From IMG/VR virus record IMGVR_UViG_2693429713_000009: a DNA stretch of 64,000 nt; one strand, given 5' to 3'. The number at the start of each line of letters is the position of its first letter. The first letter of the stretch is position 1. Source of the DNA: a virus. Taxonomy: Duplodnaviria > Heunggongvirae > Uroviricota > Caudoviricetes. The notes under the pieces are model-generated. The model was not told the DNA's origin. It saw nothing but the letters and a program-made list of their open reading frames with translations, and did not search any database. This document shows, one piece after another, positions 2,116 through 59,946 of the stretch. The position numbers and the translations under genes were made by a program.

Positions 2116-4063
2116 CAATCCTTTACGAATTAATATTCAGTCTACTTTTGCTGATACGATCCCCGGCTATATGCCAAGTCGCTGGTCTTCAGAAGAATTA
2201 AGCGAAGATGACCTGATTTTTGAGGCGGCGACCTTAGAAGATATTGAGCTTGCCTATATGGGCAATGAAATTCTGGTTGTGTCTGACGAAGCTATGTTTG
2301 AGTCCATAACTACAACCAGAATTCGGTTAGCTCAAACAATGCGAGCTTTCGTCCGTGCGCTGAATCGTGGCCTGAATGGTACGAATATTATGGCAGGGAC
2401 TGATGAAGCTGGGACCGATGAAAATGGACGTAATTGTATTGGAGGTGCGATTATCGGTCGTGTACGTCGGGTAGCTAATATCCCTGTTTTGACCGCGCAG
2501 ATACCGCTTACTGACGGGCAGAGTACAAGCATAATTTTCCACTCTCCAACAGCTGACGGGGCAAAAATAAAGAGTAACGACGAGCTTGTTGCATTTCAGT
2601 TTTTACTTAATAAGCGTAACGTAACTCACGTTGTCGCCCCGATTGGTGGGAGAGATGTTTCTTTAAGCCAGGTATGCCAGGCGCTATCTAATTTGATTGA
2701 GCGTAACAGCGAAAAATTTAAGAAAGCAAAAGAGCGCCAGGACAAAATGAAGGCAGATATTGAGAGTTATCTCAATGAAGCAGATAAACTGGCAGAAGAA
2801 CGGTCAATAATGATTGATCAGGTGGACGTTGCGCAACGTGGGCTGACTGAAAAGCGTGCTGCTCTTACGGAGATGCAAAAAAAACTTGATGCCCAGAAAG
2901 CCATCAACGAGGAATTACAAGAAAAACGCGATAAATTGTTGTCTGCTAAAGGTGAAAAAACGAAGGAACGAGCGTTTAGTGACCAGCTGCGACATGTAAA
3001 ACATAATCTTGCCATTGACGGAAAAACAGTGCTGGATAATGGCGCTGAAGTTAATTATGTCACGTCCGGCAGTGACAATTTCGTTACGATAGTAGCACCT
3101 GAAGGTAAATTCAGTATTGATGCCAGTGCTGTCAAAGGAGGCAGTTTGGCAGATGCTGCAACCAAATTACTTAAAGCCTACCGAGAGCATAACGCAGATA
3201 AATATAAAGTTGATGTGTTACCAGGCCAGCAGGAAGACTCCGAACCACCACAGACAGACCCCGAGACGAACCCAGTATCACAATCAGAAAGCCAAGATGT
3301 AGGTAAATACCACTATGCACTTCAATCTCGCCCGGCTGGTGTTGGTGCTGTGCCGGATGGAAATAAAGCCGTGCTTGATCGTCCTGACCAGGCTGATCAG
3401 TATTACGAATATGCTCGTCACGGTATCATTACGTATGACCGTAAACTGACAGATGAAGAAGTCAGCCAGTACGAGTTGCTCTATCTTCCTGATGAAGATG
3501 AGCTGAAAGATTTTGCAGACCAATTGGTTGCGTCCAGCATGTCGAAACATATTGATGGCTATGTGGACCTGTTTGGCAGTGACCTGAAAACATTCAAGGC
3601 GCAAGTGAAAATTCTTTTCCGCAAAGCGTTTCCAAACGTGGCGTATCCACTTAGTGATGGGGAGAACCTTTTCATTATGGACGTGTATAACGCCCTTCAA
3701 AATCATTCAAGCGAAGTAAAAATAGAGCATATGGTTGAGCCAGAATCACAACCACAACCACAACCACAACCACAACCACAACCACAACTACAACCAGCAC
3801 CAGAACAGGAGCCAGAAGAAACGGGTGAATCAGCAAGTGAAGCTGATCAGGAGGCAGATAAAGCACTGGAGTACCTGAAATCCGTGCCGGAGCAGTTTAC
3901 ATCCCGCGATCTGACGGTCATCAGTGCTGAACTTGATCATGTGCAGGAAGCAGCAAACGCTCTAATCAGTGCAGGTCGATACGACGAGAACGAAGCCACT
4001 GTTGGTGAAGCAGTTGACTACCTGATCAACATTCTGGCTGAAATTCAGCAGGGAGGTGCTTAA
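2102..4063 (+). CDS. darA: DarA-like antirestriction / internal head protein
   Basis: About 650 aa, size and operon position as in P1 darA; internal PQ repeat; overlaps upstream gene. Confidence 0.45.
   Translation: MSMINNPLRINIQSTFADTIPGYMPSRWSSEELSEDDLIFEAATLEDIELAYMGNEILVVSDEAMFESITTTRIRLAQTMRAFVRALNRGLNGTNIMAGTDEAGTDENGRNCIGGAIIGRVRRVANIPVLTAQIPLTDGQSTSIIFHSPTADGAKIKSNDELVAFQFLLNKRNVTHVVAPIGGRDVSLSQVCQALSNLIERNSEKFKKAKERQDKMKADIESYLNEADKLAEERSIMIDQVDVAQRGLTEKRAALTEMQKKLDAQKAINEELQEKRDKLLSAKGEKTKERAFSDQLRHVKHNLAIDGKTVLDNGAEVNYVTSGSDNFVTIVAPEGKFSIDASAVKGGSLADAATKLLKAYREHNADKYKVDVLPGQQEDSEPPQTDPETNPVSQSESQDVGKYHYALQSRPAGVGAVPDGNKAVLDRPDQADQYYEYARHGIITYDRKLTDEEVSQYELLYLPDEDELKDFADQLVASSMSKHIDGYVDLFGSDLKTFKAQVKILFRKAFPNVAYPLSDGENLFIMDVYNALQNHSSEVKIEHMVEPESQPQPQPQPQPQPQLQPAPEQEPEETGESASEADQEADKALEYLKSVPEQFTSRDLTVISAELDHVQEAANALISAGRYDENEATVGEAVDYLINILAEIQQGGA
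3747..3792 (+). repeat. (CAACCA)n hexanucleotide microsatellite inside DarA-like CDS
   Basis: About seven tandem CAACCA units encoding QPQPQPQPQPQP. Confidence 0.7.
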
Positions 4064-4513: not shown

Positions 4514-5911
4514 TTGGAGTGTATTTTGAACAAATCCGTTACTTCTGCGCTTTCCGGGGCCACAGATATTAACAGCGTCATTGCTCTGGTTTCTTCATTA
4601 GAGAGGAAAGAAACACGCCTGGGGCGAAGTAGCTACGTAGTCACCAGCAAAGGTGCAGAGGTAAAGACGGCTTTTAAGGTCGTTGATGCCAGCAGTCTGA
4701 TCATTTCGAACAACCTTGACGGTACGATTAACCCGGCCTTCCCGGAAGAACTCCAACCACGAGATCGTACCCGGCTATCCAGCAAACTCCAGGTTAACCG
4801 TATTGCCTCCAATTTACGCCCGGCACAATTAACGGATTCCGGTATGAGCAGCCACGGAGCGCCGATAGTTGGTCCGGACAACGTTGTTGAATCCGGCAAC
4901 GGAAGGAGTATGGGTATCTGGCGTGCCTATGAGCAAGGACAGGCGGATGAGTATCGCCAGTACCTGATCGACCATGCGAAAGAGTTTGGTCTGAATCCTG
5001 ACGAAATTTCGCAAATCTCTATGCCCGTACTGGTGCGAGAAAGACTCACAGATGTAGACCGCGCTCAATTTGCCCGCGATTCAAACATTAGCGATCTGCA
5101 AGAGATGGCAGCAAGTGAAAAAGCGTATGCGGATGCGCAATTTCTCACTGAGAGCGTCATGGCGCTATTTAATCCTTCAGATGATGGAAATCTGCTGGCG
5201 CGGTCCAATGATGCGTTTATTCGTGCGTTTTTGCGCGAAATTGGCGATACAGCGACGGCAGGCTTGCTTACTGCCGATGGGCGTCCCACGAAACAGCTTA
5301 TCGATCGCATCCAGAATGCAATTTTTGCCAAAGCGTACAAGGATGAAAGGCTTGTTCGGCTGGTGTCGGAAGAGCCAGATCCGGAAATGCGTAATATCCT
5401 GACCGCATTAAATACGGCAGCCAGCGATTTTGCGCAAATGCAGTCGCTGTCTGGCGACGCTCACCATGACGCAGTAACAGGCTTAGTGGACGGTATAGAG
5501 CAGGTTAATGGCCTGGATACACAGGCGATAGCAGCACTCCAGGAAGCAATTAATCTTGTACGTGAAGCCAAAGACAACGGTCAGGCCGTTGAAGAAGTGA
5601 TCGCCCAAAGGGGGTTATTCGGCGATAGTACACCGGAAGCTGAGGCATTGGCGTTATTCATCGTAGCAAATAATCGCAGTGCGAAGCGTATGGGGGCAGC
5701 ATTCAAAAAAATGGCGCAAAAAATCAACGACGAGCTGACTCATAAACAACAGGCATTGGGCGATATGTTCGGCGGTGGCGATGTTGATCTGCGTCGTATT
5801 TTGTCTGCTGTATCTGATGAAATTGAGGGTGAATTTGGCGAAGGGAAAGGTCTGAACTTTGCTATGTTTGAAAATTCTACAGGTCTAAATAATTGCCGTA
5901 CGGAAAACTAA
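4514..5911 (+). CDS. hypothetical protein, head/Dar module
   Basis: 465 aa ORF, same strand operon, no motif recognised. Confidence 0.35.
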   Translation: MECILNKSVTSALSGATDINSVIALVSSLERKETRLGRSSYVVTSKGAEVKTAFKVVDASSLIISNNLDGTINPAFPEELQPRDRTRLSSKLQVNRIASNLRPAQLTDSGMSSHGAPIVGPDNVVESGNGRSMGIWRAYEQGQADEYRQYLIDHAKEFGLNPDEISQISMPVLVRERLTDVDRAQFARDSNISDLQEMAASEKAYADAQFLTESVMALFNPSDDGNLLARSNDAFIRAFLREIGDTATAGLLTADGRPTKQLIDRIQNAIFAKAYKDERLVRLVSEEPDPEMRNILTALNTAASDFAQMQSLSGDAHHDAVTGLVDGIEQVNGLDTQAIAALQEAINLVREAKDNGQAVEEVIAQRGLFGDSTPEAEALALFIVANNRSAKRMGAAFKKMAQKINDELTHKQQALGDMFGGGDVDLRRILSAVSDEIEGEFGEGKGLNFAMFENSTGLNNCRTEN

Positions 5912-8870: not shown

Positions 8871-9833
8871 GTGAGTATTTTAAATTCAGTTTCAGTAACT
8901 TTCAACACTTCTGAGTATAAAAACAACACTGAATACCACAAAAAAATCAAAGGTCATCAGTTGAGTTTTTTTGCTCGTCATAGCGGTCTTCTTTCCCCTT
9001 CACATAGCGCCATTATTGCCGAGTTCGCCAACCTGGCAGGGTCTACCGATGAATACATGATCCGTCGCTCATATGCTGATATGTCCGAGATTACAGGACG
9101 CAGTATTTCTACTGTGCGCCGGGCATTTGCTGAAGCGACGAAGTGCGGAATGCTTGTTAAGCAACATCAGGTAGCGAATAACAATGCCCAGGTGTGTAAC
9201 GTATATCGGTTTACGACACAATTTCTCCACTTCATTCATGTAGCAATGGAGATAGGGGGTAAGCAGGGCATCAAATTTGCCAACGCCACAAAACTGGTTA
9301 AGCAGTTGATTTCAAAGGTTCGTTATTTTTTTGAAACTGGGAACCCCCTGTTCAAATTGAACAAGTCCCCCCATGTTCAAATTGAACAGCCAATAGAAAA
9401 TAAGAGTCACTCTATAGCAAAAAGAAGAGAAAGATCATGCGCGGTTCAGCCAAAGGCTTCACCAGCAGATAGTTCTCAAGCGGATAATGGGGTACTGGAT
9501 AAAAAACCAGTAATCAGGGAAGAACATACCAACCACTGCCTGGCGGCGGCAAAAGCGAGAGCTGCAAAGCGTCGTTCAGACGAGGGGCACGCAAAACGGC
9601 AGGCTCTGTATCGTACCGCTGAAAAGCTGGCAAAAAAATTTGCATGGATACGTAGTGCCGCTACCGCAGTGAATAAGCCTAAACAATCCAGTGCCCTGGA
9701 TTTCTCAATGGATTATTCTGGCTCCCAGGGGTGTGCAACCATTGGTGAAGCCTTTGACCTGATGAAACAGCGTGGCTATCGGTCTGAATTTGACCGTGAG
9801 GATTGGTCAATCCCGGCGGGCTTTAGGGGATGA
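8871..9833 (+). CDS. RepL-like replication protein
   Basis: 320 aa with HTH-like ITGRSISTVRRAF; operator-controlled promoter; internal twin palindromes. Confidence 0.4.
   Translation: MSILNSVSVTFNTSEYKNNTEYHKKIKGHQLSFFARHSGLLSPSHSAIIAEFANLAGSTDEYMIRRSYADMSEITGRSISTVRRAFAEATKCGMLVKQHQVANNNAQVCNVYRFTTQFLHFIHVAMEIGGKQGIKFANATKLVKQLISKVRYFFETGNPLFKLNKSPHVQIEQPIENKSHSIAKRRERSCAVQPKASPADSSQADNGVLDKKPVIREEHTNHCLAAAKARAAKRRSDEGHAKRQALYRTAEKLAKKFAWIRSAATAVNKPKQSSALDFSMDYSGSQGCATIGEAFDLMKQRGYRSEFDREDWSIPAGFRG
9349..9388. repeat. two copies of 15-bp palindrome TGTTCAAATTGAACA inside RepL-like CDS
   Basis: Perfect dyads at about 9349-9363 and 9374-9388; candidate origin element. Confidence 0.5.
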
Positions 9834-12044: not shown

Positions 12045-15000
12045 TTGGACAAACTACTTCATTCAATCAGTGAAGCCTCCAGCTTAGGCGAACTGATTGA
12101 AATTGTTAGTCGGTTGCATAAATTACGTGCTGTTGCGACCTTTGGCGTCAGGAAAGCCGATGGCGTCAGTATTCAGAAAACACGCCGGGCAGCAAACAAT
12201 GCCGCAGTAAATCTTCTTAATTCCCTTCCGCCCGGCTTCGATGGGGCGAAATTAACTGACGAACAACGTCAGATTCTTGCTGGGTATACCGGTGAAGGCG
12301 GCCTGACAGATGGTGAGGGCAGCCAATACGAATACTACACGCCACAGTTTATGGCTGAAGGTATATGGGATCTGTTTGCTGACTACGGTATTGATGGCGG
12401 GCACGTACTGGAACCATCAGCGGGCACAGGTATTTTCCAGGAGACAAAACGGCAGGGCATGATAATGACCAGCGCGGAACTGTCTCCGATTTCTGGTCGA
12501 ATAAACCAGCTTTTGCACCCGGAAGACGATGTGAATATCGGGGCGTTTGAGGCGCTGGCGGCGAAAGATGCAATGTATGACCACGCTGTTGGTAACGTAC
12601 CGTTTGGTGAAGGGCGTTCCGGCGTTGCCGGGCTTGATCCGGCATATGCAAACGAGAAGAACGTTGGCAATTACTTTGTGCTGCGCACGATCGACAAGGT
12701 TAAGCCTGGTGGGCTTATCGTATTGGTGGTGCCAAATGGCATGACCGATGGTACGAAATATAAAAAATTGCGCGATAAAGTCAGCCGTAAAGCGGAATTT
12801 TTGGGCGCACATCGTATGCCTTCCGGTACGTTCAGCGAATCCGGTACAGATACCGTGGTGGACGTATGGGTATTGCGTAAACACCCGGAAACCTTCCTGG
12901 AGATGATCCCCGACACGGATGATTCAACACTCAAATCGGCAAACGTCCTTTGGGATACCTTCCTCAAAGGAAAATGGTTTACAACCGAAGGGAAGCGATT
13001 TGTTTACGGCGACATGGAACGTACCAGCTTCCGCAATACCTTGGTGGTGAAAAAAGACGGTCGTGTATCCAATGAGTCGATGAAAACCGCGCTATCTCGT
13101 CGCTTTGATAGTCGCATCAATTGGGATTTGCTCGGCGTAACTACTCAGGCATGGCAGGGCGCGAAAGTGGGCGATAAACGCCTTGTAGGCGGTATCTGGC
13201 ATGAGTTTGATGGTCTGAAATGGGTTAAGGACACGACAACCAAATCCTCCGCGCTTGATGTAAGTCGATATGGTGTTTCGACGTTTGGCGATCTGCAGAT
13301 CGCGTTCCAGTCAACAAACGGGATTCTGGCTTTGTCATGGGACCAGATATCGGCGATCGCGTCCGACTATCCATCGGTTGTCAGTGATGAAGTGGCAGCA
13401 ATGATTCGCTTTGCTGGCAAGCAGCGAGAAAAAGACAGGGAGCGCGTTATGCGCGGTGCGCTGATAGGTCAGTTGATCAACAAGGCACTTGATTTGCGTA
13501 ACCTGGGTGTGAACGTTGATGACAAACTGGCAGATGCATCCCGCCTGGCGGCAGCAGAAGTTGCGAAGTATGGACCACCGCACGCCATTAAGCTGAATGG
13601 GCTTGCTGAAGCTGGCGCTAAAAACTGGATGACGTTCACTGGCAATGTGAAACAGGATGGTTCCACTTCTGACCTTCTGGCAGGGCGACTTGATGTAACG
13701 GATGGTGCTGCCGGTATTGACTTTACACGTCCTGAACAAGTGATAGCACATCTTTTCAGTGATGTAGCCCTTAATCCTATAACGCTGGGAGACTTTCGTG
13801 AGGCGTTTGCTGGTGAACTGCCAGAGGACGACGACGCGGCCCTTGAATACCTGGCGAAATTTGATGATATCGCTATTGATGGGTATGGCTGCCTGCTGCC
13901 GATGGACCGCGCCACCAGCGGCGATATTGCAACCAAAACAGCATTGCTGATGGGCTGGCGTGATGCGTCAACAGGTGAGCAGAAAGCGAACTTTGAGCGT
14001 CAGTTGGCGAAAATCGAAGAGAAACGTATTTTCACGCCACTAAATAAAGTCACCGTTAATCTGAATGCCCGCTGGCTGGATCGCCGCTTGATAAAAGAGT
14101 TCCTGGCAGAGCAGGGCTATGACGAGTTTAAGTACACTGAACCTGATCTGAAGGTCGTCGATGGCATTCTGGTATCTCCGGACGATTACGAAGGTAAGGA
14201 CGGGGTATTTACCGGCTATCAGCTACGAACCGTAAACGGCAAAAACGGGAATGAGTTCAAGAAGGCCAACAATAAAGACGGCTTCCTGAACCAGTTAGAA
14301 AACTACCTGAACGGTGTTAAACCGCGTGGGCAGAACGCTAACGAGTACCTGGATAAAATTGCTCAACTGGAAGTTAGTTTTAACGACTGGTTACGCACTC
14401 ACCCGCAGGCTGATCAGATAGCCCGCGAGTATAACGACGCATTCAATGGTTTCATTCCGTTCACGCATTCTGACGCACCGCTTGGCCTGGAAGGGCTTAG
14501 TGGAAAGCGCATTCCTCTTACTTATCAGAATGAAGAAGTTCGGCGCTTGTCAGAAGATGGGCGCGGCATCATGGGATTTGGTACCGGGCTGGGTAAAACC
14601 ACGACCGCGCTTGCGCTTGAGGCGTATAACTTCGAAACAGGTCGCACTAAACGCACGTGTATTGTTGTTCCGAAGGCGGTTTATCAGAACTGGTATCACG
14701 AGGCACAGAGTTTCTACAGTGCTGATGCCTTTGCCAATATGATGTTTATCGGTTTGGATGAAGTTCGTGATGACAGCGGAAATATTCTGACCGCGCCGGT
14801 GCTTGATGAAAATGGCGAACCACGCCTCGACAGTAACGGGCAGCCTCTTACCAGAAATGTTGTGAAAGAGTCCGCCAGCGCCGTTATCGTTCAGCGCATG
14901 AACATGATCCCGTCGTCAAATTGGCGAACGGTCATCATGACAAAAGAACAATTCGCGTCTATCCCGCTACGAGAAAAAACCATCGAGGAGAACTCACAGC

Positions 15001-18000
15001 AAGCTGTCTTTAATGCTGTGGAAATGGGGCGTCTTGACCTGGCGTCCGGTAAACACCGTGATGCGCAGAAGAAGAACAAGATTAAGGATCAGGCCGCGAA
15101 TACCGGTACAACGAAGAAGCAGAATATCCCGTACTTTGAGGATATGAACTTCGATAGCGTGATTGCCGACGAGGGGCATAACTACCGCAACTCCTTTAAT
15201 GCCGGGCGTGAAGCGGGACAACTGGCATATTTGCCTAACCCGGCAGTATCCAAGATGGCCCGCGACATGGCTGTAAAAGCTGCGTACATGATGAAACGCA
15301 ACAACGGGCGTGGTGTAGTCATGCTGACGGCAACTCCGCTGGTGAACAGTCCGATTGATGCCTTCAACATGCTGTCTACTGTCATTCCGCAGGAAGAGTG
15401 GATGCGCATGGGCATCATTACGCCTGATGATTTCGTTCGTGTGTTTGGCAAAACAGCCACAGTTCAGGTCCAGAAAATTTCCGGGGAAGTGGAAGAGAAG
15501 CAGGGGCTGGTGGGCTTCCAGAACCTTGACGGCCTGCGTGGTATTTTCCATCGTTGGACCACTCTGAAGACTGCTGCAGATGTCGGAGCGACGGTTAAAA
15601 TTCCCGACATCATTGAGAACACCTTGCAGATCCCGATGACAGGGGAGCAGGAGATTGCTTATGAAGAGCTTCGTAAGCGTGCTCAGGAGTTAAGTCGCAA
15701 TGATGAGCTGACAGTCGATGAAAACGGGCATATCACTAACGACAAACCGGATGATTTCATCTTCTCCATCATCCGTGACATGGACAAGGTTGCTATAGAC
15801 CCGGATCTGTATGCCAGTGCGATTACATTCCAGTTCCCCGTTGAGCTTGCAGACCAGGTAAAAGCTATTGCTGATGCCTTGCCAAAAGTAGCTGGCGGTA
15901 AAGTGGCAGATGATGTTGATGAGGCCGAGGAAGACGGCGCTGGCGGGCTGGTCAGTACGCGTACCAGCAAGGTAGTGAAGACCGCTTTTAGTGAACATCC
16001 GACGCATGTTGAAATACGTGCCAGCATTGAACTGGAAGCTGAAATACTTAAGGCTATTGCGGCTGCCGGTATTGATATGCAGCAGGTATCGCACCCCATC
16101 CCGCCGAAGTATGCCGCGCTGATCGAAAATCTTCGTGAAGGTCTGAAGAACGGTAAGCAGATCGTCTTTATTGATGAAAAAGCCCAGCACCAGAAGTTGC
16201 GCCGTATTATCGCCAGTGCACTGCAAATGCCGGAACAGGAGATTGGCATTATCAATGCGACGACAGTTAGCCAGGCTGGCGGCATCAAGCTGAAGAAGGT
16301 GAATAAGCCGACCGAACCTACTCCAAACAAAAACGGTGAATACAAAGAAGGGGCATGGGAAACCTACTACAGCAAACTTGCCCAATATGAGGATTATCTC
16401 TCAGCTAAAAATGATGCTGGCCTTGAGGGCATGGAAGGTATTGCCGCCGACTATAACGAAGGTCGCACGCGTATCATAATCTGTAACAAGAAGGCTGAAG
16501 TAGGTATTAACCTGCACATCGGGACAACCGATATCCACCACCTGACACTACCCTGGACACCAGCCAGTATCGACCAACGAAATGGGCGCGGTGCGCGCGT
16601 AGGTTCACCGCAAGAGAAGGTCAATGTTCACTACTATTGTGGCAAAGGCACATTCGACGACTTCCGTCTGGATACGCTGAAACGTAAGAAAGACTGGATC
16701 AAGATGGTGATGACCTCCGACATGTCAGAGATCGCCAATGGTGATGCGGATGATGCTGATGAACGCGCCATTATGCTGGCGGCAAACCCGGAAGAACGCC
16801 GCGCAATCATGGCTCGCCAGGCGCAAGAGCGTGAAGAACGTCTGAAACTGAAAGCACAGCGCGAGGCCAACAATGCTCTCGATATCTACCTGAAAGCGGC
16901 AAACGCCGCCGGAAAAGATATCGGCATGATGGAGACAGAACTGAAAAGCGCGATGGAACAGATAGAGTATTACCAGCGCAATCTTGACGACCTGATAAAA
17001 GCGGGTACGAACAGGAATGGGCAAAAATACGCGCTTGAGCAGTTGAGTAGCTACAGAAAACGTGCGCGGGTGCTGCGGTTTGCGATCACCAGGGCAAAAG
17101 ACGCGGATACCATAATGAAACGCTCTCGTGGTGATGTGGAGCGCGCTATTAAGTCTGGTGTGCTGGATATCAGTATCGATGTTATTCAGAACCCACAGGA
17201 ATATATGCGCACTGACAAGAATATCCTGTTGCATAAAGGTAGTTATTACCGTGCAGTCATTGATGATCGCGAAACAACAGCGATTGTCCGGGTGGAAAAA
17301 ATTGACGGTGAAAAAGCACAATACCTCTGCCGTATCGCCTGGCTGGATAGAGCAAGTCGTTACGCTCGAGCACCGGGGTCAATCGTTACATTGCCGTTTG
17401 ACTCTGTGATTGAAGCGGTAACTTTTGAAGAGGGGGTAGCTGAATCGCGCGCAACGGCTGCGCGTGGTGTTCAGTGCCACCAGCTATCAACAATACTTAC
17501 TCGCGATCAGTTCTATGATGCTATTCGCAATGGGGTAATGAATGTTATTGCTGGTAAACCTGGTAATGCATGGGGCGGTGGGTCAGCTATTAAATACTGG
17601 GCTTATCGCACAGATGATGGTCAGATCGCGCTGTCATCGACCTATGATGGCATGATAGGACAGAAAATCGGGCGTACATCGGATATTGCACCAGAGCAGT
17701 GGATTTACCCTGATATCAACAATGAGGCGCTGAAGCGTGAAGTGGCAAAAATACAAGCCAGTGATAATCCGCTGAATATCGTGGACGGAGAGGGATTCCT
17801 CCAGGCATTGTATGGGTATGATTACATCCAGGGAATGCAGGCATGGGGCGCACAAGCAACGATGGATGATGTTGCCCAGGAGTTCGAAAACTGGATGGCT
17901 GGGCGTGGTCTGTCAGGTCGTTCGCTTAATAAAGTCACTTCTGAAGATATTCTTAGCTTGTTCCGTAAACCGTCCGGAGAAGGTCTGGAATCATTCTGGA

Positions 18001-18881
18001 GGACCGTGCTGGCATACCGTTTATTCCAGGGCAGGATGAAAGCCTTTAGCAATATCGATGATATTGAACGGATGTTTAATCAGGTCAAGATCGCGAAAAT
18101 TAAGGCGAAGATCGAAAAAACACGTTCTGCGCTGGTGGCCTGGCGCGATGCATTGTTTGAGCAATATAAATCACTCAGTGATGCAGATGGATGGGCGGCA
18201 TTGGAACAGCTGGCGAATAATGGGGTAGATGGAGCGAAACTCGCCATTGTTCAGGCTGATAACCCCTTGGAATCACCGGCAGCACAGTGGATTAAGGTTG
18301 GGGCTGTCATCAATGCATTTGATGAAAAACACATTAGTAAGGACGATTTTGCTGATGCTGTTTCTGTTAATCGCCTGGTAGAAATGGCTACCCGTCGCGC
18401 CCGTGAGTTGAAAGACGGCGACTATGTGAATGAGTTGCCGGATGCGCTCAAATCGGCAACGTGGCAGGACTATGTATCGCTGAAAAACGGCGGGGCCACT
18501 GAATCAGAGATCGCGAAAAGGCTTGAGCAGGCTGAAAGCAAAAGAGAAGAGCAGGCGGCAGTGGCTGAAGCCAGAGCTGATGAAGCGGCGAATGATGACT
18601 ATATCATTGTGGTTAATGATAAGCCGATTCGCGCTAAGGCGCGTGTTCGCGGGCGCTGGTGGAGCGTCAGCGAAGACGTTGGCGCGGTTTATCTCATTGC
18701 CGACCAGCCAGGTTCCTCGACAATACGGAACGCCAAAGACGCGATTAAGAAGATTGGCGGGCGTTTCTGGAATTTTGAAGCAAACCCGGTTGCTGATGTG
18801 AACTTTGACCGTCCGGCGTGGATGGTATCTACGCGTTACTCGGTAGATGAACTGCGTAAAATAATCGCCGATGCGGCCTAA
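12045..18881 (+). CDS. darB: DarB-like antirestriction protein, N6-adenine methyltransferase plus helicase
   Basis: 2278 aa; TTG start after GAGGGGG; SAM motif VLEPSAGTGIF and NVPFG; helicase Walker A GFGTGLGKTT and DEGH box. Confidence 0.8.
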   Translation: MDKLLHSISEASSLGELIEIVSRLHKLRAVATFGVRKADGVSIQKTRRAANNAAVNLLNSLPPGFDGAKLTDEQRQILAGYTGEGGLTDGEGSQYEYYTPQFMAEGIWDLFADYGIDGGHVLEPSAGTGIFQETKRQGMIMTSAELSPISGRINQLLHPEDDVNIGAFEALAAKDAMYDHAVGNVPFGEGRSGVAGLDPAYANEKNVGNYFVLRTIDKVKPGGLIVLVVPNGMTDGTKYKKLRDKVSRKAEFLGAHRMPSGTFSESGTDTVVDVWVLRKHPETFLEMIPDTDDSTLKSANVLWDTFLKGKWFTTEGKRFVYGDMERTSFRNTLVVKKDGRVSNESMKTALSRRFDSRINWDLLGVTTQAWQGAKVGDKRLVGGIWHEFDGLKWVKDTTTKSSALDVSRYGVSTFGDLQIAFQSTNGILALSWDQISAIASDYPSVVSDEVAAMIRFAGKQREKDRERVMRGALIGQLINKALDLRNLGVNVDDKLADASRLAAAEVAKYGPPHAIKLNGLAEAGAKNWMTFTGNVKQDGSTSDLLAGRLDVTDGAAGIDFTRPEQVIAHLFSDVALNPITLGDFREAFAGELPEDDDAALEYLAKFDDIAIDGYGCLLPMDRATSGDIATKTALLMGWRDASTGEQKANFERQLAKIEEKRIFTPLNKVTVNLNARWLDRRLIKEFLAEQGYDEFKYTEPDLKVVDGILVSPDDYEGKDGVFTGYQLRTVNGKNGNEFKKANNKDGFLNQLENYLNGVKPRGQNANEYLDKIAQLEVSFNDWLRTHPQADQIAREYNDAFNGFIPFTHSDAPLGLEGLSGKRIPLTYQNEEVRRLSEDGRGIMGFGTGLGKTTTALALEAYNFETGRTKRTCIVVPKAVYQNWYHEAQSFYSADAFANMMFIGLDEVRDDSGNILTAPVLDENGEPRLDSNGQPLTRNVVKESASAVIVQRMNMIPSSNWRTVIMTKEQFASIPLREKTIEENSQQAVFNAVEMGRLDLASGKHRDAQKKNKIKDQAANTGTTKKQNIPYFEDMNFDSVIADEGHNYRNSFNAGREAGQLAYLPNPAVSKMARDMAVKAAYMMKRNNGRGVVMLTATPLVNSPIDAFNMLSTVIPQEEWMRMGIITPDDFVRVFGKTATVQVQKISGEVEEKQGLVGFQNLDGLRGIFHRWTTLKTAADVGATVKIPDIIENTLQIPMTGEQEIAYEELRKRAQELSRNDELTVDENGHITNDKPDDFIFSIIRDMDKVAIDPDLYASAITFQFPVELADQVKAIADALPKVAGGKVADDVDEAEEDGAGGLVSTRTSKVVKTAFSEHPTHVEIRASIELEAEILKAIAAAGIDMQQVSHPIPPKYAALIENLREGLKNGKQIVFIDEKAQHQKLRRIIASALQMPEQEIGIINATTVSQAGGIKLKKVNKPTEPTPNKNGEYKEGAWETYYSKLAQYEDYLSAKNDAGLEGMEGIAADYNEGRTRIIICNKKAEVGINLHIGTTDIHHLTLPWTPASIDQRNGRGARVGSPQEKVNVHYYCGKGTFDDFRLDTLKRKKDWIKMVMTSDMSEIANGDADDADERAIMLAANPEERRAIMARQAQEREERLKLKAQREANNALDIYLKAANAAGKDIGMMETELKSAMEQIEYYQRNLDDLIKAGTNRNGQKYALEQLSSYRKRARVLRFAITRAKDADTIMKRSRGDVERAIKSGVLDISIDVIQNPQEYMRTDKNILLHKGSYYRAVIDDRETTAIVRVEKIDGEKAQYLCRIAWLDRASRYARAPGSIVTLPFDSVIEAVTFEEGVAESRATAARGVQCHQLSTILTRDQFYDAIRNGVMNVIAGKPGNAWGGGSAIKYWAYRTDDGQIALSSTYDGMIGQKIGRTSDIAPEQWIYPDINNEALKREVAKIQASDNPLNIVDGEGFLQALYGYDYIQGMQAWGAQATMDDVAQEFENWMAGRGLSGRSLNKVTSEDILSLFRKPSGEGLESFWRTVLAYRLFQGRMKAFSNIDDIERMFNQVKIAKIKAKIEKTRSALVAWRDALFEQYKSLSDADGWAALEQLANNGVDGAKLAIVQADNPLESPAAQWIKVGAVINAFDEKHISKDDFADAVSVNRLVEMATRRARELKDGDYVNELPDALKSATWQDYVSLKNGGATESEIAKRLEQAESKREEQAAVAEARADEAANDDYIIVVNDKPIRAKARVRGRWWSVSEDVGAVYLIADQPGSSTIRNAKDAIKKIGGRFWNFEANPVADVNFDRPAWMVSTRYSVDELRKIIADAA

Positions 18882-53265: not shown

Positions 53266-53400
53266 TCACATTAGTAGCTTTGTTAACTCCCTCAATACCA
53301 GGTAGAAGAGTAACAAAAATATTGACGCGAGTATTTGAGTGGTCAATGAAGCGTTCATAAACAGATCAATTAGCATTAATAATTCGAAGATAACATCCAT
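53266..53400 (-). CDS. small hydrophobic peptide (candidate membrane toxin-like)
   Basis: 44 aa MDVIFELLMLIDLFMNASLTTQILASIFLLLFYLVLRELTKLLM with GGAG upstream; hairpins in its 5' region. Confidence 0.25.
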   Translation of the reverse strand: MDVIFELLMLIDLFMNASLTTQILASIFLLLFYLVLRELTKLLM

Positions 53401-53593
53401 GTCATTCACTCCGTTTAATTTTTAATCTAATGCCAGCAAATGAAGCTGGCCCCCGCATAAAGATTAATGAAAGTCACTTGTCACCAGTGAGGGGATTTAT
53501 GAACCACATCCCCCTGAACTGGTGGCCTGTCTGTTTCTCGCATTTCACACCCTGCATACAGTTTCCCCCAGGTTATGACTGAGAGGCTTTGTT

Positions 53594-53923
53594 ATGGGCT
53601 ATAGCAGACTCGACGATAGGTACATTGAAGACGATATTTTTCGTGCGCTGTTTCACCAGGAAATGATTAAGCGGGTATCGGAGTATCACTCTGATAATTT
53701 CCAGTACACGATAAAGATTGATGAAGTATATCGTTCAGACCTTGCAGCCTACAGGGCGTATGGCAATGCAGATTTGCGCTGGGTATTCCGGGTGCTGGTG
53801 GGCCATGAGTCAGAAATGGAAGAAATGCCCGCCGGGACCACGTTAACTCTTCCTGATGTGGCATGGCTGAGGAACAAGATCCGTGATTACGCGAGCGCGG
53901 AACCGGAGATAGAAAATGCCTGA
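53594..53923 (+). CDS. hypothetical protein
   Basis: 109 aa, overlaps start of SWIM gene. Confidence 0.4.
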   Translation: MGYSRLDDRYIEDDIFRALFHQEMIKRVSEYHSDNFQYTIKIDEVYRSDLAAYRAYGNADLRWVFRVLVGHESEMEEMPAGTTLTLPDVAWLRNKIRDYASAEPEIENA

Positions 53924-55112
53924 TTTCCTGAAAAACCAGGACGGGCGCTATATCACTGACGGCCTGTCCTCTAAGGACTTCACGCGTTTATTCGACCTTA
54001 TCAGGAAAGAACAAACCCGTAAGCGCCGACAAGCTCACCGGACGCTGACGCCAGGTAGACTGAGGAACAAATCCGCCGAAGATATTCTCAAGTTAGGGAA
54101 GAAAAAAGGCGGCACGTTCTTCACGCGAGACGACCTGAAAGGTTTCGAAAAGCTACGGAGTAAAACACGCGAAAAATATGACAGCAAGACGGCTGGCATC
54201 ACATACGCCCAGCTGGTGGCATCCAGCCAAGCAATCGATATTAAGCGTGCAAATAACGCCGTGGATGACGGATCTGGTATCAAAAGAGCTACACCCGTAT
54301 CTCTTCGCCACAACGTGATTAATATCCGCGTAGAAGCATCGGATATATCCGTCCACCAGCACCATATCGTCCGGATACGCTTTGAAGAATGGGATCAGAT
54401 GGTCGATGACATCGCAGAAGACGATAAATCAGCCCTGAAAATCACTAAATCACTGTGCGCCGGGCGGGTGTCTTTCGATTGTGACTGTGGTCGTCATCAA
54501 TACTGGTATCGTTACATCGCTACTGCGGGTAACTTTGCCCTGGCCCCGCCAAAAGAATACGCCTATCCAAAAGTTCGTAACCCTAAGCTACAAGGCGTCG
54601 CCTGTAAACACGTGATCCACTCAATGACGCGGTTACAGTCCGCTAGTTGGCAAATGAGTATTGCTCGTGCGTTACAAAAGGCCGCAACGCAAATTGCATT
54701 TGGTGACGATCGCCGCCGTACAACCAAACACTTCTCAAAAGAAGACGAGAGGGAGTTTAATCGCAATCGCAACAGTAAAACAAACGTTGACGTTGCCAAG
54801 CGCGAATGGAGGCTCTATCAGAAGCGCCAGGCCGCTTTAAGCACAAAACTGGCAAAGGACAACGGCAAAATTGACAAGCTACGTGACCAATTGACCAAAG
54901 CCAGAAAGTTGTCAGACGCACAGAAAAAACGGGCGGCAGCAAAAGAAGCGGCCTTGCAACGTGAGAAACAGAAAAACAAGGAGCTTCAGCAACGCCTTGC
55001 CGATCAGTTCGCACTGAAGAAGCAGGCGTTCATTGATGCGCTTGTCATGGCAGGAACGTCACCTGAGCAAGCTGAAAAAATGTTTATGGAGTATGTGAAG
55101 AAAGGTTCTTAA
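53916..55112 (+). CDS. SWIM zinc-finger protein with basic coiled-coil tail
   Basis: 398 aa; CDCGRH...CKH pattern; Lys/Arg-rich helical C-terminus. Confidence 0.45.
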   Translation: MPDFLKNQDGRYITDGLSSKDFTRLFDLIRKEQTRKRRQAHRTLTPGRLRNKSAEDILKLGKKKGGTFFTRDDLKGFEKLRSKTREKYDSKTAGITYAQLVASSQAIDIKRANNAVDDGSGIKRATPVSLRHNVINIRVEASDISVHQHHIVRIRFEEWDQMVDDIAEDDKSALKITKSLCAGRVSFDCDCGRHQYWYRYIATAGNFALAPPKEYAYPKVRNPKLQGVACKHVIHSMTRLQSASWQMSIARALQKAATQIAFGDDRRRTTKHFSKEDEREFNRNRNSKTNVDVAKREWRLYQKRQAALSTKLAKDNGKIDKLRDQLTKARKLSDAQKKRAAAKEAALQREKQKNKELQQRLADQFALKKQAFIDALVMAGTSPEQAEKMFMEYVKKGS

Positions 55113-55121
55113 TTTACAACA

Positions 55122-55146
55122 AAGGCGGTTATCCCGCCTTTTATAT
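55122..55146. terminator. hairpin terminator
   Basis: AAGGCGG-TTATC-CCGCCTT then TTTT. Confidence 0.5.
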
Positions 55147-55883
55147 TACTTGTCCTTTGATGTCGATTGAGACTCATATATTGTCTCCACGTCATCTATT
55201 AATTTATTAATACCCCACAATCCAGTGTCTTTATAAAAATCACTTTCTTCAATTGCTTTTAATAAATCGGCAAAATCTTCTTTGGTGGAAATCCTTTTAT
55301 CTTTTGCTTTATATATATCAACAATTACTTTTATACCGTGATACAGAGCCACTCTGGCACTCTCAATCTCTCTCTTCTTTTCTTCGATTGTATTCAGTAT
55401 TTTTTGTTGACCTTCTATTTGTTCCTCTAATTTTAAAAGCTCTTCCTCTTTTTTCTTTAGGTTTCTCAGTAACGCCTTTACTCTTGCTTTCTCTTCTGAG
55501 TCAAATTCATGGTCAATGTATCTTATTTGCGCATAATTTCTACCAGTTAGTTTTGATATACGCATAGTAATATAAGGCATTACTATGGACGCAATAGTGC
55601 CATATATAAACGGCATCACAAAGTGAGCTAAAAACGGAGATACAATGAAGGTTCCAAAATAAGGGATTTGATATTTATCCCCTACCCATACTATAGACAG
55701 TGTTGTGTATATATCATATTTAGATTTAAACAAAATTAGTATTTCTTGCCAATTAACGACAAAAAATGAAACCACCACATATGCAAATAATTTATTAAAT
55801 AATTTATCTTTTATGGCTTCATCCATTGTGCCCTTGATTGAGTCAATTGTAGATGTGTTTTCTGTTGATGAATTTTTGCTCAT
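55146..55883 (-). CDS. AT-rich membrane protein with cytoplasmic coiled coil
   Basis: About 245 aa; GC content by eye roughly one third, far below flanks; multiple TM segments then Lys/Glu-rich coiled coil. Confidence 0.5.
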   Translation of the reverse strand: MSKNSSTENTSTIDSIKGTMDEAIKDKLFNKLFAYVVVSFFVVNWQEILILFKSKYDIYTTLSIVWVGDKYQIPYFGTFIVSPFLAHFVMPFIYGTIASIVMPYITMRISKLTGRNYAQIRYIDHEFDSEEKARVKALLRNLKKKEEELLKLEEQIEGQQKILNTIEEKKREIESARVALYHGIKVIVDIYKAKDKRISTKEDFADLLKAIEESDFYKDTGLWGINKLIDDVETIYESQSTSKDK

Positions 55884-55945
55884 ACAAGCTATCAAACCTT
55901 CTAATTTTTATTTTAGATAAAAAGCGGTCCTCCAGACCGCCAAAC

Positions 55946-56305
55946 TTAAACACCAACCAGACTTTCCAGTGGAATACCAAACTGGGCATGTAAACGACGA
56001 ATCATAGGTAACGTCAAATTTCGTGTCCCATTAAGCACTTCGTAAACACGGTTTGACTTACCAATTGCCGGTTCCAGATCCTTCACGGTCAGCCCTTGCT
56101 GTTCCATACGGAATTTAATGGCCTCAATAGGTGATGGTGGCTCAATTGGGTAATGTTTTTTCTCGTACTCCTCAATGAGAAGACACATAACCTCAAAGAA
56201 ATCGCCTTCCGGTGTGTTCATTTCCGGTTCATTATCGAACATCGGTTCGACCGCACGCAGTGCGGCCTCATAATCTTGTTCTGTACGGATAGGTTTAATG
56301 TTCAT
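55946..56305 (-). CDS. higA: HigA-like antitoxin (HTH)
   Basis: 119 aa with C-terminal HTH; downstream of toxin. Confidence 0.65.
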   Translation of the reverse strand: MNIKPIRTEQDYEAALRAVEPMFDNEPEMNTPEGDFFEVMCLLIEEYEKKHYPIEPPSPIEAIKFRMEQQGLTVKDLEPAIGKSNRVYEVLNGTRNLTLPMIRRLHAQFGIPLESLVGV

Positions 56306-56308
56306 GAT

Positions 56309-56611
56309 TTACTCCAGTTCTATTGTATCCGCTTCAATGGCATCGTATTCCTTATGTGTTCCAATAAACTTAACGAACATCCATCCTCGCTGATAAGCAA
56401 TTGCGACAATTAACCTGTAATCATTTCCCTTAATATTGAACACCACGCGCCTGTTTTTAAGGATGCTGGCTGTCCGGTACTGTTCTTTGATCTCAGCCGG
56501 ATTTTTCCAGTCAGCCTTTGTTGCTTCATCAACCCATGCCTTTAATGGCTGTTCTGCATCGGGATTCTTCGCCCAGAAATCCCTTAGTGTTTTTACCGAA
56601 ATTATTTTCAT
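56309..56611 (-). CDS. higB: HigB-like toxin (RelE/ParE superfamily)
   Basis: 100 aa from MKIISVKTLRDFW; THKEYD motif; toxin precedes antitoxin. Confidence 0.65.
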   Translation of the reverse strand: MKIISVKTLRDFWAKNPDAEQPLKAWVDEATKADWKNPAEIKEQYRTASILKNRRVVFNIKGNDYRLIVAIAYQRGWMFVKFIGTHKEYDAIEADTIELE

Positions 56612-56638
56612 CACAGATTCCTTCTCTCTGAAAGTATA

Positions 56639-56688
56639 GTAGTCCCAATATGGGACAATGTAAAGCACTTTAGTCCCATGCTGGGATA
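56639..56688. promoter_or_regulatory. higBA operator-like dyads
   Basis: Two TAGTCCCA-N4-TGGGA palindromes upstream of higB. Confidence 0.5.
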
Positions 56689-56756
56689 TGAATTGAAATC
56701 ACAATCTCCAGACAATGCACCCTCGATACCTGATAAATCGACCTTTGAGGATGCTT

Positions 56757-57548
56757 ATGGGCCGTTTTGACGAATGGTTTGCTGACGATGCAAACCTGGC
56801 AAGTAAGAAGTCAGAACATGACAGCACGCAGAGAGAAACGCCAGCGCCGATTGAAGCGAATGCAGGAGGCACGCCGGAACATGGCAATACCGGTTCGGAT
56901 TCATTCAGCATTCTGGAAGAGCAACCCGCCGCCAAAGCTGATAGCCATGATAATTTTGCTGATAGCAACGGTGGCCTTACTCCGGATGCTGGCGAATCAG
57001 ATATAGCCATACTTCCACCTTCCCTGGCTGGCAGAGAACCAACTCCACAGCTAAAAGCACGCTATAACGGGCATAAAGCCTTTAACGACCAAATCCGCGC
57101 AGACTGGATGCTGATTATTGAATCCAGCCCAGACGCGTTTCAGGCTCTCTTATATCGACCAGATGTTGGCACATATGGGGTAGTCAGCGACGAAACAGGA
57201 GAAGAGTCATTCACTGAACTGGATAACAACCAACGCGAACTGACTTACCAGGAACCTGAAATCGTTTATGTGCTGGATAACCCGGACGGGCGTGACTCTT
57301 TCCATGCGATTGACGCAGACGGTGAGCAGGATGGTTTAACCGATGATGTTCTGATTCTGCGTATTGCAGCAAATAACGTCCCCGTCGGATCAATTCTTGA
57401 ATGGAATGAAGAGATGGTAAACGGCGTAGCCCGCCGCTGGTGGTACGTGCACCGTATTTTTAGCTACGGCACACAGCATGTTGGTTCGCTTTACTACTGC
57501 ATACCTGCCAGAAATTTTGATACGACTCAAAACGGAGTGATCGAATGA
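56757..57548 (+). CDS. hypothetical protein, possible tail/baseplate module
   Basis: ATG at 56757 after GAGGATG; acidic N-terminal half. Confidence 0.4.
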   Translation: MGRFDEWFADDANLASKKSEHDSTQRETPAPIEANAGGTPEHGNTGSDSFSILEEQPAAKADSHDNFADSNGGLTPDAGESDIAILPPSLAGREPTPQLKARYNGHKAFNDQIRADWMLIIESSPDAFQALLYRPDVGTYGVVSDETGEESFTELDNNQRELTYQEPEIVYVLDNPDGRDSFHAIDADGEQDGLTDDVLILRIAANNVPVGSILEWNEEMVNGVARRWWYVHRIFSYGTQHVGSLYYCIPARNFDTTQNGVIE

Positions 57549-58312
57549 CTTCAAATAAAACCCTCCTGGCGCGAACAGGTGAATGGCAAACATCACGCAC
57601 AGGAAAATTCCAGACCACGGGCTTTGAAAACGTGGATAACGCGTTTGCTACGCTAATCAGCAATATCTTTTCTGATATCTTACTGGTGGCCCCCGCGCCG
57701 GAAGAAAAACGCTTTGCGTCATTCCTGAATCGTCCACCAGCAGAGCGTGTCTATGTGGCCCGTTTTGACAATGCGATCGAGTTTCTTAAAGCAGTTCGTC
57801 GCGCAAATGCCGGGCAAGGGAGAAAACCTGAAAACCAGAACATTAACCGGGATGCTCTCCCCCTAGTCAATATCTCACGCACTATGGATATCAATTATAT
57901 CAACGATGATCAGCAGATTGACCGCAAAAAAGTAGCCAGTTTTTGCGAACCAGATACCGGAATGCCTTTAGCAGAACTGGAATACACCCAGGCCATTCTG
58001 ACGTATGACGTTACGTTAATGGCAACTGATAAAGCGACCATGAGTCTGATGTGTAATTCGCTGGGCGCACGGCTTCGCCTGATGACAGGTACACAATTTG
58101 AAGCAACCACTCACCTTGTTCGTGTCCCGGTCCCGCTGATTTGCTCGATACAGGATGCCAAAGAAGTCGGCTTTACGGATGTTTCAGCACCAATTGGAGA
58201 AGAGCGTATTTATGCCACACAAGCGCCGATAAGTGTGATTGCAGACGTGATCACAGCATGGGAGTTGGACGCAAAACGTATTATTACCGAAACCTCGATA
58301 TCTATGGGGTGA
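57545..58312 (+). CDS. hypothetical protein, possible baseplate module
   Basis: 255 aa, overlapping starts. Confidence 0.4.
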   Translation: MTSNKTLLARTGEWQTSRTGKFQTTGFENVDNAFATLISNIFSDILLVAPAPEEKRFASFLNRPPAERVYVARFDNAIEFLKAVRRANAGQGRKPENQNINRDALPLVNISRTMDINYINDDQQIDRKKVASFCEPDTGMPLAELEYTQAILTYDVTLMATDKATMSLMCNSLGARLRLMTGTQFEATTHLVRVPVPLICSIQDAKEVGFTDVSAPIGEERIYATQAPISVIADVITAWELDAKRIITETSISMG

Positions 58313-58315
58313 TAA

Positions 58316-59296
58316 GTGGCCCAGGAGTTACAACAATATTTTCTACAGTCAGTGCTCATTAACGATAACAAAGTGCCACGAGACTGGATTTTTACCGCAG
58401 TATATGTAGAAAAAACCAGCCTCAAAGCCCCTTTGCTAAAACTGGAAATTCATGACGCTACCGGCACCGTAATTGATGACTGGAAAGCCAAATACGGTGC
58501 ATCGCTGGTGGCTGAAATGGGCGATCCAAACGGTAATGCAGGCACTTTTAAAACAGATTTCTTTGTTACGTCTGCAATGCTGGCTGGTGATGTTGTTACC
58601 GTTATTGCTGTCAGTGAAGACGTGCGTAGGTTTAAGATCCCCTCCCCGCGCACAAATTTACATACCAACAAAACACCAGACGCTATATTCAAGGCATATT
58701 CCGGCAAGCTTAAAATTACCAGCAGCGTGCTAAAACGCGCAGTTACATATCATCTGAATGCCGGTGACAAACCGTCAAAAATGCTTTCGGAGATAGCGCG
58801 AGACAAAGGTGCATTATGTTGGGTATGCCGGGGGGAATTTAACTTTTACACCCTGGCTGATCTGATGAAGCAAACGCCATCATTTACCTACGAGGGGAAT
58901 AACCCTAAAGCAGAATACACTTTGTCCAAAATGCGCCTACTCCAACAGGAACATGCGACAACAGCAAAGAATCAATATCGTTTTGTTGGGTATTCCATGA
59001 CCGATGGCTACGTCGAATATGGCGATAGCTCACTCCCAGTGCGTTATATATCCGACTCTGATATGGAAACTCTTCGCAATATGCAGCTGTCTCTCGTCCC
59101 CAAAATGGATATAGAAGTCGCAGGCAATCCTGATATAAAACCGGGGATGGTGATAGAGATTATCGTATACCGCTATGACCAGGAAAACCGCATTGATGAA
59201 TCAATGCCCCGTAAGCTAATAGTAAAAAATGTTGCGCACTTTGAAGACCGCGTAGGCTACACAACACGAATGATATTGGGAGTGCCGAACAAATGA
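58316..59296 (+). CDS. hypothetical protein, possible baseplate module
   Basis: 326 aa. Confidence 0.4.
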   Translation: MAQELQQYFLQSVLINDNKVPRDWIFTAVYVEKTSLKAPLLKLEIHDATGTVIDDWKAKYGASLVAEMGDPNGNAGTFKTDFFVTSAMLAGDVVTVIAVSEDVRRFKIPSPRTNLHTNKTPDAIFKAYSGKLKITSSVLKRAVTYHLNAGDKPSKMLSEIARDKGALCWVCRGEFNFYTLADLMKQTPSFTYEGNNPKAEYTLSKMRLLQQEHATTAKNQYRFVGYSMTDGYVEYGDSSLPVRYISDSDMETLRNMQLSLVPKMDIEVAGNPDIKPGMVIEIIVYRYDQENRIDESMPRKLIVKNVAHFEDRVGYTTRMILGVPNK

Positions 59297-59946
59297 AGCG
59301 TAGAGCGCAAATTGTTGGAACTGTGCACCCGGCAGGGCTTATGCGTGCTCAAGTCCGTGTTTTACCTGACTGGAATGGCGTTCCTGATGACGATCTACCC
59401 TGGGCGGAATACCTGTTACCCATCGGTAACGCTTTTGTACCCACAGTCAAAGGTGACCTGGTCTGGGTAGAGTTTCCTTATTTAGATGTTAACGGTCGAA
59501 TAGACACCAGACGCCCAATGATAGTTGGTGCCGCTCAGGATGCACCGGGAGGAATTCCAAACGTTGCACCAGAAGCATCTGGCAAAGGCAACGGCTGGAC
59601 GCCGCCGGAAGTAGATGGAGCACCTCCCCGCCCCCAAATCTCAGCAACGAAAGACTTCGTTATTCACCGCAACAATATTCTTGAAGTACGAACTGCTGGT
59701 GGCGGCTATGAAATTGCCAATACGGCAGCAGGCTCAAGGATTGGCATGAATGAGTCCGGGCAGATATATATCATTGGTCCGGCTGATGTAATCGTGAATG
59801 CAGGAGGGAGTGTTAACGTCAAATCAGCCAACAACATCAATGTTAAAGGGGAAAATATTGCTGTCACCGCTAACGGAGACATAGCTTTCAAGGCAGGAGG
59901 AACCTTTCAGGCCACTGCTAGCAACTTCGATTTCAAGAAAGGATAG
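59293..59946 (+). CDS. possible baseplate spike / gpV-like protein
   Basis: 217 aa; N-terminal OB-like region then Gly/Asn-rich repetitive beta-strand-like tail. Confidence 0.4.
   Translation: MKRRAQIVGTVHPAGLMRAQVRVLPDWNGVPDDDLPWAEYLLPIGNAFVPTVKGDLVWVEFPYLDVNGRIDTRRPMIVGAAQDAPGGIPNVAPEASGKGNGWTPPEVDGAPPRPQISATKDFVIHRNNILEVRTAGGGYEIANTAAGSRIGMNESGQIYIIGPADVIVNAGGSVNVKSANNINVKGENIAVTANGDIAFKAGGTFQATASNFDFKKG

Follow-up and report, generated by a model that had tools for sequence, protein, structure and literature searches.

Two overlapping genes of the window, by which we mean the whole 64,000-nucleotide stretch of viral DNA analysed here, are almost certainly the orthologs of genes 26 and 25 of phage P1. 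The first product (gp26) corresponds to a solved baseplate protein. The second (gp25) contains an invariant set of three cysteines and one histidine, located in what is probably a divergent SWIM-like zinc module, with zinc binding putative and the fold taken from a structural model. The genes themselves were already known, as orthologs of P1 25 and 26. The SWIM-like module of gp25, its absolute conservation and the two- or three-gene cassette to which it belongs go unmentioned in the P1 record and in the P1 literature that we searched.

Layout of the gene pair

Both open reading frames (ORFs) were confirmed on the plus strand. The gene 26 ortholog (53594-53923) encodes an acidic protein of 109 amino acids with a pI of 4.8, the T4 gp53-like baseplate 'plug'. 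The gene 25 ortholog (53916-55112) encodes a protein of 398 amino acids with a pI of 10.06 and a net charge of +35, known as a 'tail stability' protein and carrying the SWIM-like zinc finger. By direct reading of the sequence, the start of gene 25 and the stop of gene 26 share 8 nt on the plus strand (53916-53923, ATGCCTGA): gene 26 ends with ...GAA AAT GCC TGA, while gene 25 starts with ATG CCT GAT. The initial annotation had described a 109-residue frame overlapping the start of a 398-residue one, and these coordinates agree with it. A GGAG sequence (53905-53908) is positioned 7 nt 5' of the gene 25 ATG. Downstream, a terminator-like hairpin (55121-55141, plus strand) with an 8-bp stem containing 5 GC pairs, followed by a T-rich tail, separates gene 25 from a convergent gene for a 249-residue protein; this hairpin was found in a consensus scan and is a pattern match only.

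Identity of the pair as P1 late genes 26 and 25

Judged from its DNA matches, the window is a P1/D6-like phage-plasmid. A 4.2-kb region was 100% identical to a 92-kb Salmonella plasmid and was matched in 122 non-mobilizable plasmids of Escherichia, Salmonella and Shigella. The same region shares ~96% DNA identity with Escherichia phage D6, a P1-like phage-plasmid, in which the pair is annotated as 'similar to P1 gene 26' (baseplate) and 'similar to P1 gene 25' (tail). In BLASTP, the 398-residue protein was 56% identical to P1 gp25 (E 4e-137), and its residues 2-396 aligned with phrog_1722 (E 5e-196). The 109-residue protein shares 41% amino acid identity with P1 gp26 and matched both phrog_1269, 'baseplate wedge subunit' (E 2e-36), and the solved P1 Gp26 chain (PDB 9ay5_S, 9vzk; E 1e-16). 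With the Pfam family Phage_gp53 (PF11246) it scored 13.6 bits (E 0.053), below the cutoff of 21; the likeness of gp26 to T4 gp53 is drawn from the HHpred results of PMC9024508. All P1-like relatives examined carry the pair, with gp26 present in 79 of 80 P1-like loci, 122 plasmids and 23 phage records.

The surrounding genes are arranged in the order mat-26-25-islet-7-24-6-5. The P1 record shows a contiguous late operon, 26-25-7-24-6-5, with the late promoter LP26 and a C1 operator. In the window the P1-type tail operon continues on the plus strand with genes 7, 24, 6 and 5 at 56715-59946 (PHROGs 1906, 1767, 1390 and 430; D6 and P1 annotation). The only label that the P1 record gives to gene 25 is 'tail stability; ... 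similar to myosin II heavy chain'. Its first part is second-hand, taken from annotation and secondary literature, and is common to the contiguous P1 genes 7, 24 and 25.

The intergenic gap between mat and gene 26 (53266-53593) is unusually long, at 328 nt, and the D6 annotation places two tiny minus-strand ORFs within it. The P1 LP26/O26 control region aligned poorly with this interval. In a late-promoter search of the window, a local candidate box and the P1 -22/-10 pattern recurred no more than expected by chance. Further upstream on the plus strand, three large ORFs resemble the Dar-type injected proteins of P1. One (2069-4063) matched phrog_1926, 'released from the phage upon host infection', the second (4514-5911) matched large methyltransferase-like PHROGs, and the third (12045-18881) encodes 2278 residues.

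What is known of P1 gp26 and gp25

In the P1 virion, gp26 forms a six-fold 'plug' that joins the wedges to the central hub (PMC12810830; bioRxiv 2025.07.21.665459), and it has been likened to T4 gp53 (PMC9024508; bioRxiv 2025.07.21.665459). The wedge-hub junction parts during contraction (PMC12810830). gp25 is neither modelled nor mentioned in these two P1 cryo-EM studies (PMC12810830; bioRxiv 2025.07.21.665459). It was detected in the P1 virion proteome with 2 peptides (8.4% coverage); for P1 gp25, HHpred 'was unable to identify possible roles', and the authors raised the idea that it serves as a chaperone or cofactor (PMC9024508). Our Pfam, NCBIfam and PDB sequence and profile searches with the 398-residue protein returned nothing informative, and no PDB chain resembled gp25 in sequence or profile searches.

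Amber mutants are known for P1 genes 25 and 26 (PMC10695390), and because they were isolated as such, both genes are counted as essential. However, CRISPRi of genes 25 and 26 reduced plating only ~10-fold (EOP about 0.1), so that they were scored as non-essential, and genes 7, 24, 6 and 5, which lie downstream and are essential, showed no polar effect (PMC10695390). The authors termed this outcome, set against the amber essentials, a 'double contradiction' (PMC10695390). Possible explanations are that few copies of the products are required or that gene 7 is preceded by an internal promoter.

The Cys/His motif of gp25 is invariant

The motif of gp25 reads FDC(189)DC(191)GRH, then AC(230)KH(232) beyond a spacer of 38 residues, that is C189-x-C191-x38-C230-x-H232. 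The CxCx(n)CxH finger noted in the initial annotation is thus present, with n = 38. Together with the invariant insert residues E214, P218, N222 and G227, the signature spans 54480-54611 (plus strand). It is contained in a conserved alpha/beta core domain that covers residues ~90-262 (54183-54701, plus strand).

A profile search of 1.84 billion representatives at E ≤ 1e-3 returned a gp25 family of 661 clusters (50% identity). Conservation of the Cys/His pattern in homologs had been suggested as the check on the finger, and upon alignment the ligands proved invariant. C189, C191, C230, K231 and H232 are retained in 27 of 27 close homologs, in 137 of 137 diverse representatives (clustered at 50% identity) and throughout a 148-sequence alignment in which identity falls to ~22%. 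Since it is invariant in all three sets, we judge the CxC...CxH pattern not to be a product of chance. The only other invariant residues of gp25 are G94 and the four spacer positions named above. Thus, the finger and its insert form the most constrained part of the protein.

Evidence for a SWIM-like fold

The Pfam SWIM model (gathering threshold 19.6 bits) matched neither whole gp25 nor the isolated region. An artificial version of gp25 with the insert deleted reached 12.6 bits, below the cutoff, and 4 of 60 distant members gave weak Pfam SWIM matches (best E 0.01). The spacer of 38 residues is outside the usual SWIM range of 6-16 (PMC5727457). In contrast, structure prediction argues moderately for a SWIM assignment. 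AlphaFold2 models were obtained for full-length gp25 from the 148-sequence alignment (mean pLDDT 95.3, pTM 0.82) and for residues 60-290 (pLDDT 94.8, pTM 0.91), and two solved SWIM proteins resemble the predicted fold. A Foldseek search of predicted viral structures (BFVD) returned small phage proteins, of which the named ones are SWIM-type (E 1.6e-4 and 2.3e-3). The SWIM label of the initial annotation therefore holds for the signature and the modelled fold, but not for the Pfam threshold or the typical spacer length.

Long SWIM inserts are known. In Shu2 the SWIM spacer comprises 59 residues, and the insert forms a protein-protein interface with Shu1 (PMC5727457). ZSWIM8 forms a dimeric multi-protein superdomain that has the SWIM domain as its 'central organizer' (PMC13083262). 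If Shu2 and ZSWIM8 are taken as models, the invariant insert of gp25 may likewise serve as a protein-interaction surface. A full-text search of a limited library found no report of a SWIM zinc finger in a bacteriophage virion context.

The C-terminal tail of gp25 is basic and predicted to be helical

The C-terminal ~135 residues of gp25 (residues 263-398; 54702-55109, plus strand) carry a net charge of +16 and are predicted to form long helices (H291-314, H318-378 and H383-397). The tail is net-positive in 98% of 137 representatives, with a median charge of +13. This agrees with the basic coiled-coil tail described initially, and the P1 record lists a myosin-like region in gp25. gp26 and gp25 are opposite in charge (pI 4.8 versus 10.06).

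In Xanthomonas phage Rb1 (PQ569993.1; locus L004, 4800-5879), a gp25 homolog is annotated as 'transcriptional regulator MvaT / nucleoid associated protein'. This homolog bears the invariant CxC...CKH module and adjoins the major capsid gene, and for these reasons we doubt the label, which probably arose spuriously from the basic helical tail.

Conserved pairing with a gp26-like gene in distant relatives

We surveyed 80 genome loci at the species level, most of which were prophages in the chromosomes of Gamma- and Betaproteobacteria. A single motif-bearing ORF was found in 65 of them. Upstream, the gp25-like ORF is abutted by an ORF of 90-120 residues, and 50 of 58 such neighbours belong to one family. 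This family is homologous to gp26 (hhalign probability 97%, E 3e-11), and an HMM built from it selects the gp26 ORF alone among all ORFs of the window. The junctions between gp26-like and gp25-like genes range from -44 to +12 nt in 50 of 50 distant pairs. This spacing, together with the 8-nt overlap in the window, supports translational coupling, as had been proposed for the two genes. The comparison indicates that the pairing is ancient.

In Acinetobacter phage ABMM1 the gp26-like and gp25-like genes are adjacent. The same is true of an Aeromonas locus, in which the pair is placed among phrog_1014, sheath, tube and gp6-like genes. No matches to the structural proteins of this locus were found among the window ORFs with phmmer; the window is without sheath and capsid genes. 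Xanthomonas phage Rb1 is an exception, a gp26-like ORF not being found immediately upstream of its gp25 homolog. No gp26-gp25 fusion was present among 269 family proteins.

In 53 of 55 distant loci, a third gene of ~160-185 residues (phrog_4597) is coupled to the 3' side of the gp25-like gene, for example at 2556-3062 of locus L211 and 9121-9669 of locus L166 (loci L166-L245). A homolog of this phrog_4597-like gene is absent among the window ORFs. Compared with P1 gp7 and gp24 it gave hhalign probabilities under 2%, and it has no PDB relative. Two hhalign runs of the third gene against gp7 aligned only a short 'hP.sF...lyR' stretch, which was not significant.

A proposed role for gp25 in baseplate and tail assembly

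We propose that gp25 is a very basic protein, stabilised by zinc, that makes protein contacts and cooperates with gp26 in assembling the baseplate or tail, and consider the chances of this about even. For an assembly role of gp25 together with gp26, our confidence remains somewhat below that. In this scheme, gp26 is the small acidic plug that fixes the baseplate wedges to the central hub. The core of gp25 would be a SWIM-type module whose three cysteines and single histidine presumably hold a structural zinc, with the 38-residue invariant insert between the two ligand pairs and basic helical arms on the flanks. Translational coupling would lead to the production of gp25 in a fixed ratio to gp26, its acidic partner at the wedge-hub junction. 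The SWIM insert would be the surface by which gp25 contacts other proteins during baseplate or tail assembly, and gp25 would be an assembly factor or else a non-symmetric component present in low copy. By locking the junction of plug, wedge and hub, it would keep the extended tail metastable. Loss of this lock would then account for 'tail stability' as the phenotype of mutants in P1 gene 25: the wedge-hub junction separates on contraction, and a defect there would therefore yield prematurely contracted, 'unstable' tails.

The low requirement for gp25, its weak signal in virions and its absence from the symmetric maps are compatible with both forms of this model, the assembly factor and the asymmetric low-copy component, and the two virion peptides may equally mean that gp25 is a true low-copy structural component. 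The strong, conserved positive charge of gp25 is accounted for no less well by DNA binding than by an acidic partner. We weighed a second reading, which we regard as rather unlikely and which is the closest surviving form of the earlier nucleic-acid idea. Here, gp25 would be a low-copy virion component that binds DNA, for example in the neck, in the tail lumen or at the leading DNA end, and leaves the particle together with the genome; DNA would be held by the basic arms, and the SWIM module would anchor gp25 to neck or tail proteins. The pI of 10.06, the net charge of +35 and the basic C-tail in 98% of 137 representatives are consistent with such a function, although Pfam, NCBIfam and PDB profile searches detected no DNA-binding domain. 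SWIM domains are predicted to bind DNA or proteins (PMC5727457). However, the solved SWIM neighbours of gp25 organise protein-protein assemblies, and the insert invariants E214, P218, N222 and G227 would be atypical as ligands of the DNA backbone. Recovery of 2 gp25 peptides from purified P1 virions (PMC9024508) would be expected of a virion component. Averaged cryo-EM maps routinely miss symmetry-mismatched or flexible internal proteins, and the tape measure protein Sit and UpfB are likewise not resolved in P1 (PMC12810830). Gene context points in both directions: the ABMM1 cassette is located near capsid-side genes (terminase...pair...'head vertex protein') and the Rb1 homolog adjoins the major capsid protein gene, but the tight, conserved coupling is with the gene of a baseplate protein. 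Moreover, the classical annotation records a tail phenotype, not one of the head or the DNA.

A role at the opposite end of the tail appears less probable still. gp25 could be a tail-completion factor that helps to load the terminator, gp24, or the stopper, gp7 (PMC12810830), in which case its adjacency to gp26 would be historical. Genes 7, 24 and 25 of P1 are contiguous and share the 'tail stability' label, yet the coupling to gp26 is equally conserved. The third gene of ~170 residues, coupled 3' of the gp25-like gene in 53 of 55 distant loci, might have provided a connection, but it does not significantly resemble either gp7 or gp24 (hhalign probability under 2%), and its link to tail completion is therefore speculative.

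The adjacent islet and the defence hypothesis

The cargo islet between genes 25 and 7 occupies 55146-56668 on the minus strand. It encodes the 249-residue protein, which has a transmembrane segment and a coiled coil (phrog_8191), a HigA-like HTH protein and a HigB-like toxin. In PADLOC, the HigA-like protein matched PD-Lambda-2_B (E 7e-43) over the first 119 of 402 positions, and the HigB-like toxin matched PD-Lambda-2_A (E 2e-41). Plasmid annotations name the islet genes HigB/HTH. D6 carries a different toxin-antitoxin set at this position. From these matches, the islet might represent a PD-Lambda-2-type module for defence or addiction, in reduced or variant form. The accessory element is this minus-strand islet, and not the 26/25 pair, for which PADLOC-DB gave no component match at E ≤ 0.01.

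The suggestion that the pair is itself accessory cargo, a defence or nucleic-acid-targeting module, had its appeal in the adjoining toxin-antitoxin/PD-Lambda-2-like islet and in a basic protein with a zinc finger, but it is effectively refuted by orthology and synteny, the pair corresponding to core P1 late tail genes of the LP26 operon, occurring in all P1-like relatives examined and being embedded in structural modules in distant prophages, with gp26 a solved virion protein of the baseplate. The idea of phage resistance likewise finds no PADLOC match in either protein, and the nucleic-acid-targeting function suggested earlier is unsupported, since in both solved SWIM proteins with a likeness to the model the domain organises protein-protein assemblies. 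We advise against following up the pair as defence cargo.

Significance

P1 is a workhorse phage, and gene 25 is among its few essential morphogenetic genes without an assigned mechanism. Its amber mutants are ~40 years old, and its product is missing from both recent near-complete virion structures. The SWIM-type module, the coupling to gp26 across Gamma- and Betaproteobacterial prophages and the third partner gene lead to specific experiments on gp25, and so make a minor but old gap in what is known of P1 accessible to tests. A bolder generalisation, which we consider doubtful, is that gp25-like proteins constitute an unrecognised viral class of SWIM proteins. As zinc-dependent latch or loader factors, universal to the contractile tails of the P1 supergroup (at least 661 clusters), they would set the metastable baseplate by installing the gp26 plug; alternatively, they would be carried on the DNA end as an ejected zinc-finger protein. 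Either, if true, would for the first time assign a SWIM domain a mechanistic part in virus assembly and would explain P1 gene 25.

Comparison with known systems

Genes 26 and 25 open the tail operon of P1 in the order and orientation seen for the pair in the window, and P1 gp25 has the same zinc-finger sequence. The two systems differ in their junctions: genes 26 and 25 are set 9 nt apart in P1, whereas the D6-type pair of the window overlaps by 8 nt, and the 3 nt that separate P1 genes 25 and 7 are replaced in the window by the minus-strand islet, which breaks the operon after gene 25. The C-terminal tail of gp25 has also diverged, the alignment of the two proteins being lost past residue ~356.

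With T4 the comparison is one of role only: gp26 and gp25 may be set beside T4 gp53 and the non-structural baseplate assembly factors of T4 (gp51 and the T4 gp26/gp28 type), no sequence or fold similarity of gp25 to T4 proteins having been found. Among predicted viral structures, the best named matches to gp25 are proteins of Achromobacter phage Motura (A0A514CSJ7) and Burkholderia phage BcepSauron (A0A482MLT0), with Foldseek E values of 1.6e-4 and 2.3e-3. These SWIM-type proteins are small (139-223 residues) and are without the N-terminal and basic coiled-coil arms of gp25.

Compared to the SWIM family (PF04434), as represented by ZSWIM8 (9rwz) and by Shu2 of the Shu complex, gp25 differs in its spacer, which comprises 38 residues instead of the usual 6-16 and is itself invariant. 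It also differs in setting: SWIM proteins are known from chromatin, recombination and ubiquitin ligation, whereas the context of gp25 is virion morphogenesis.
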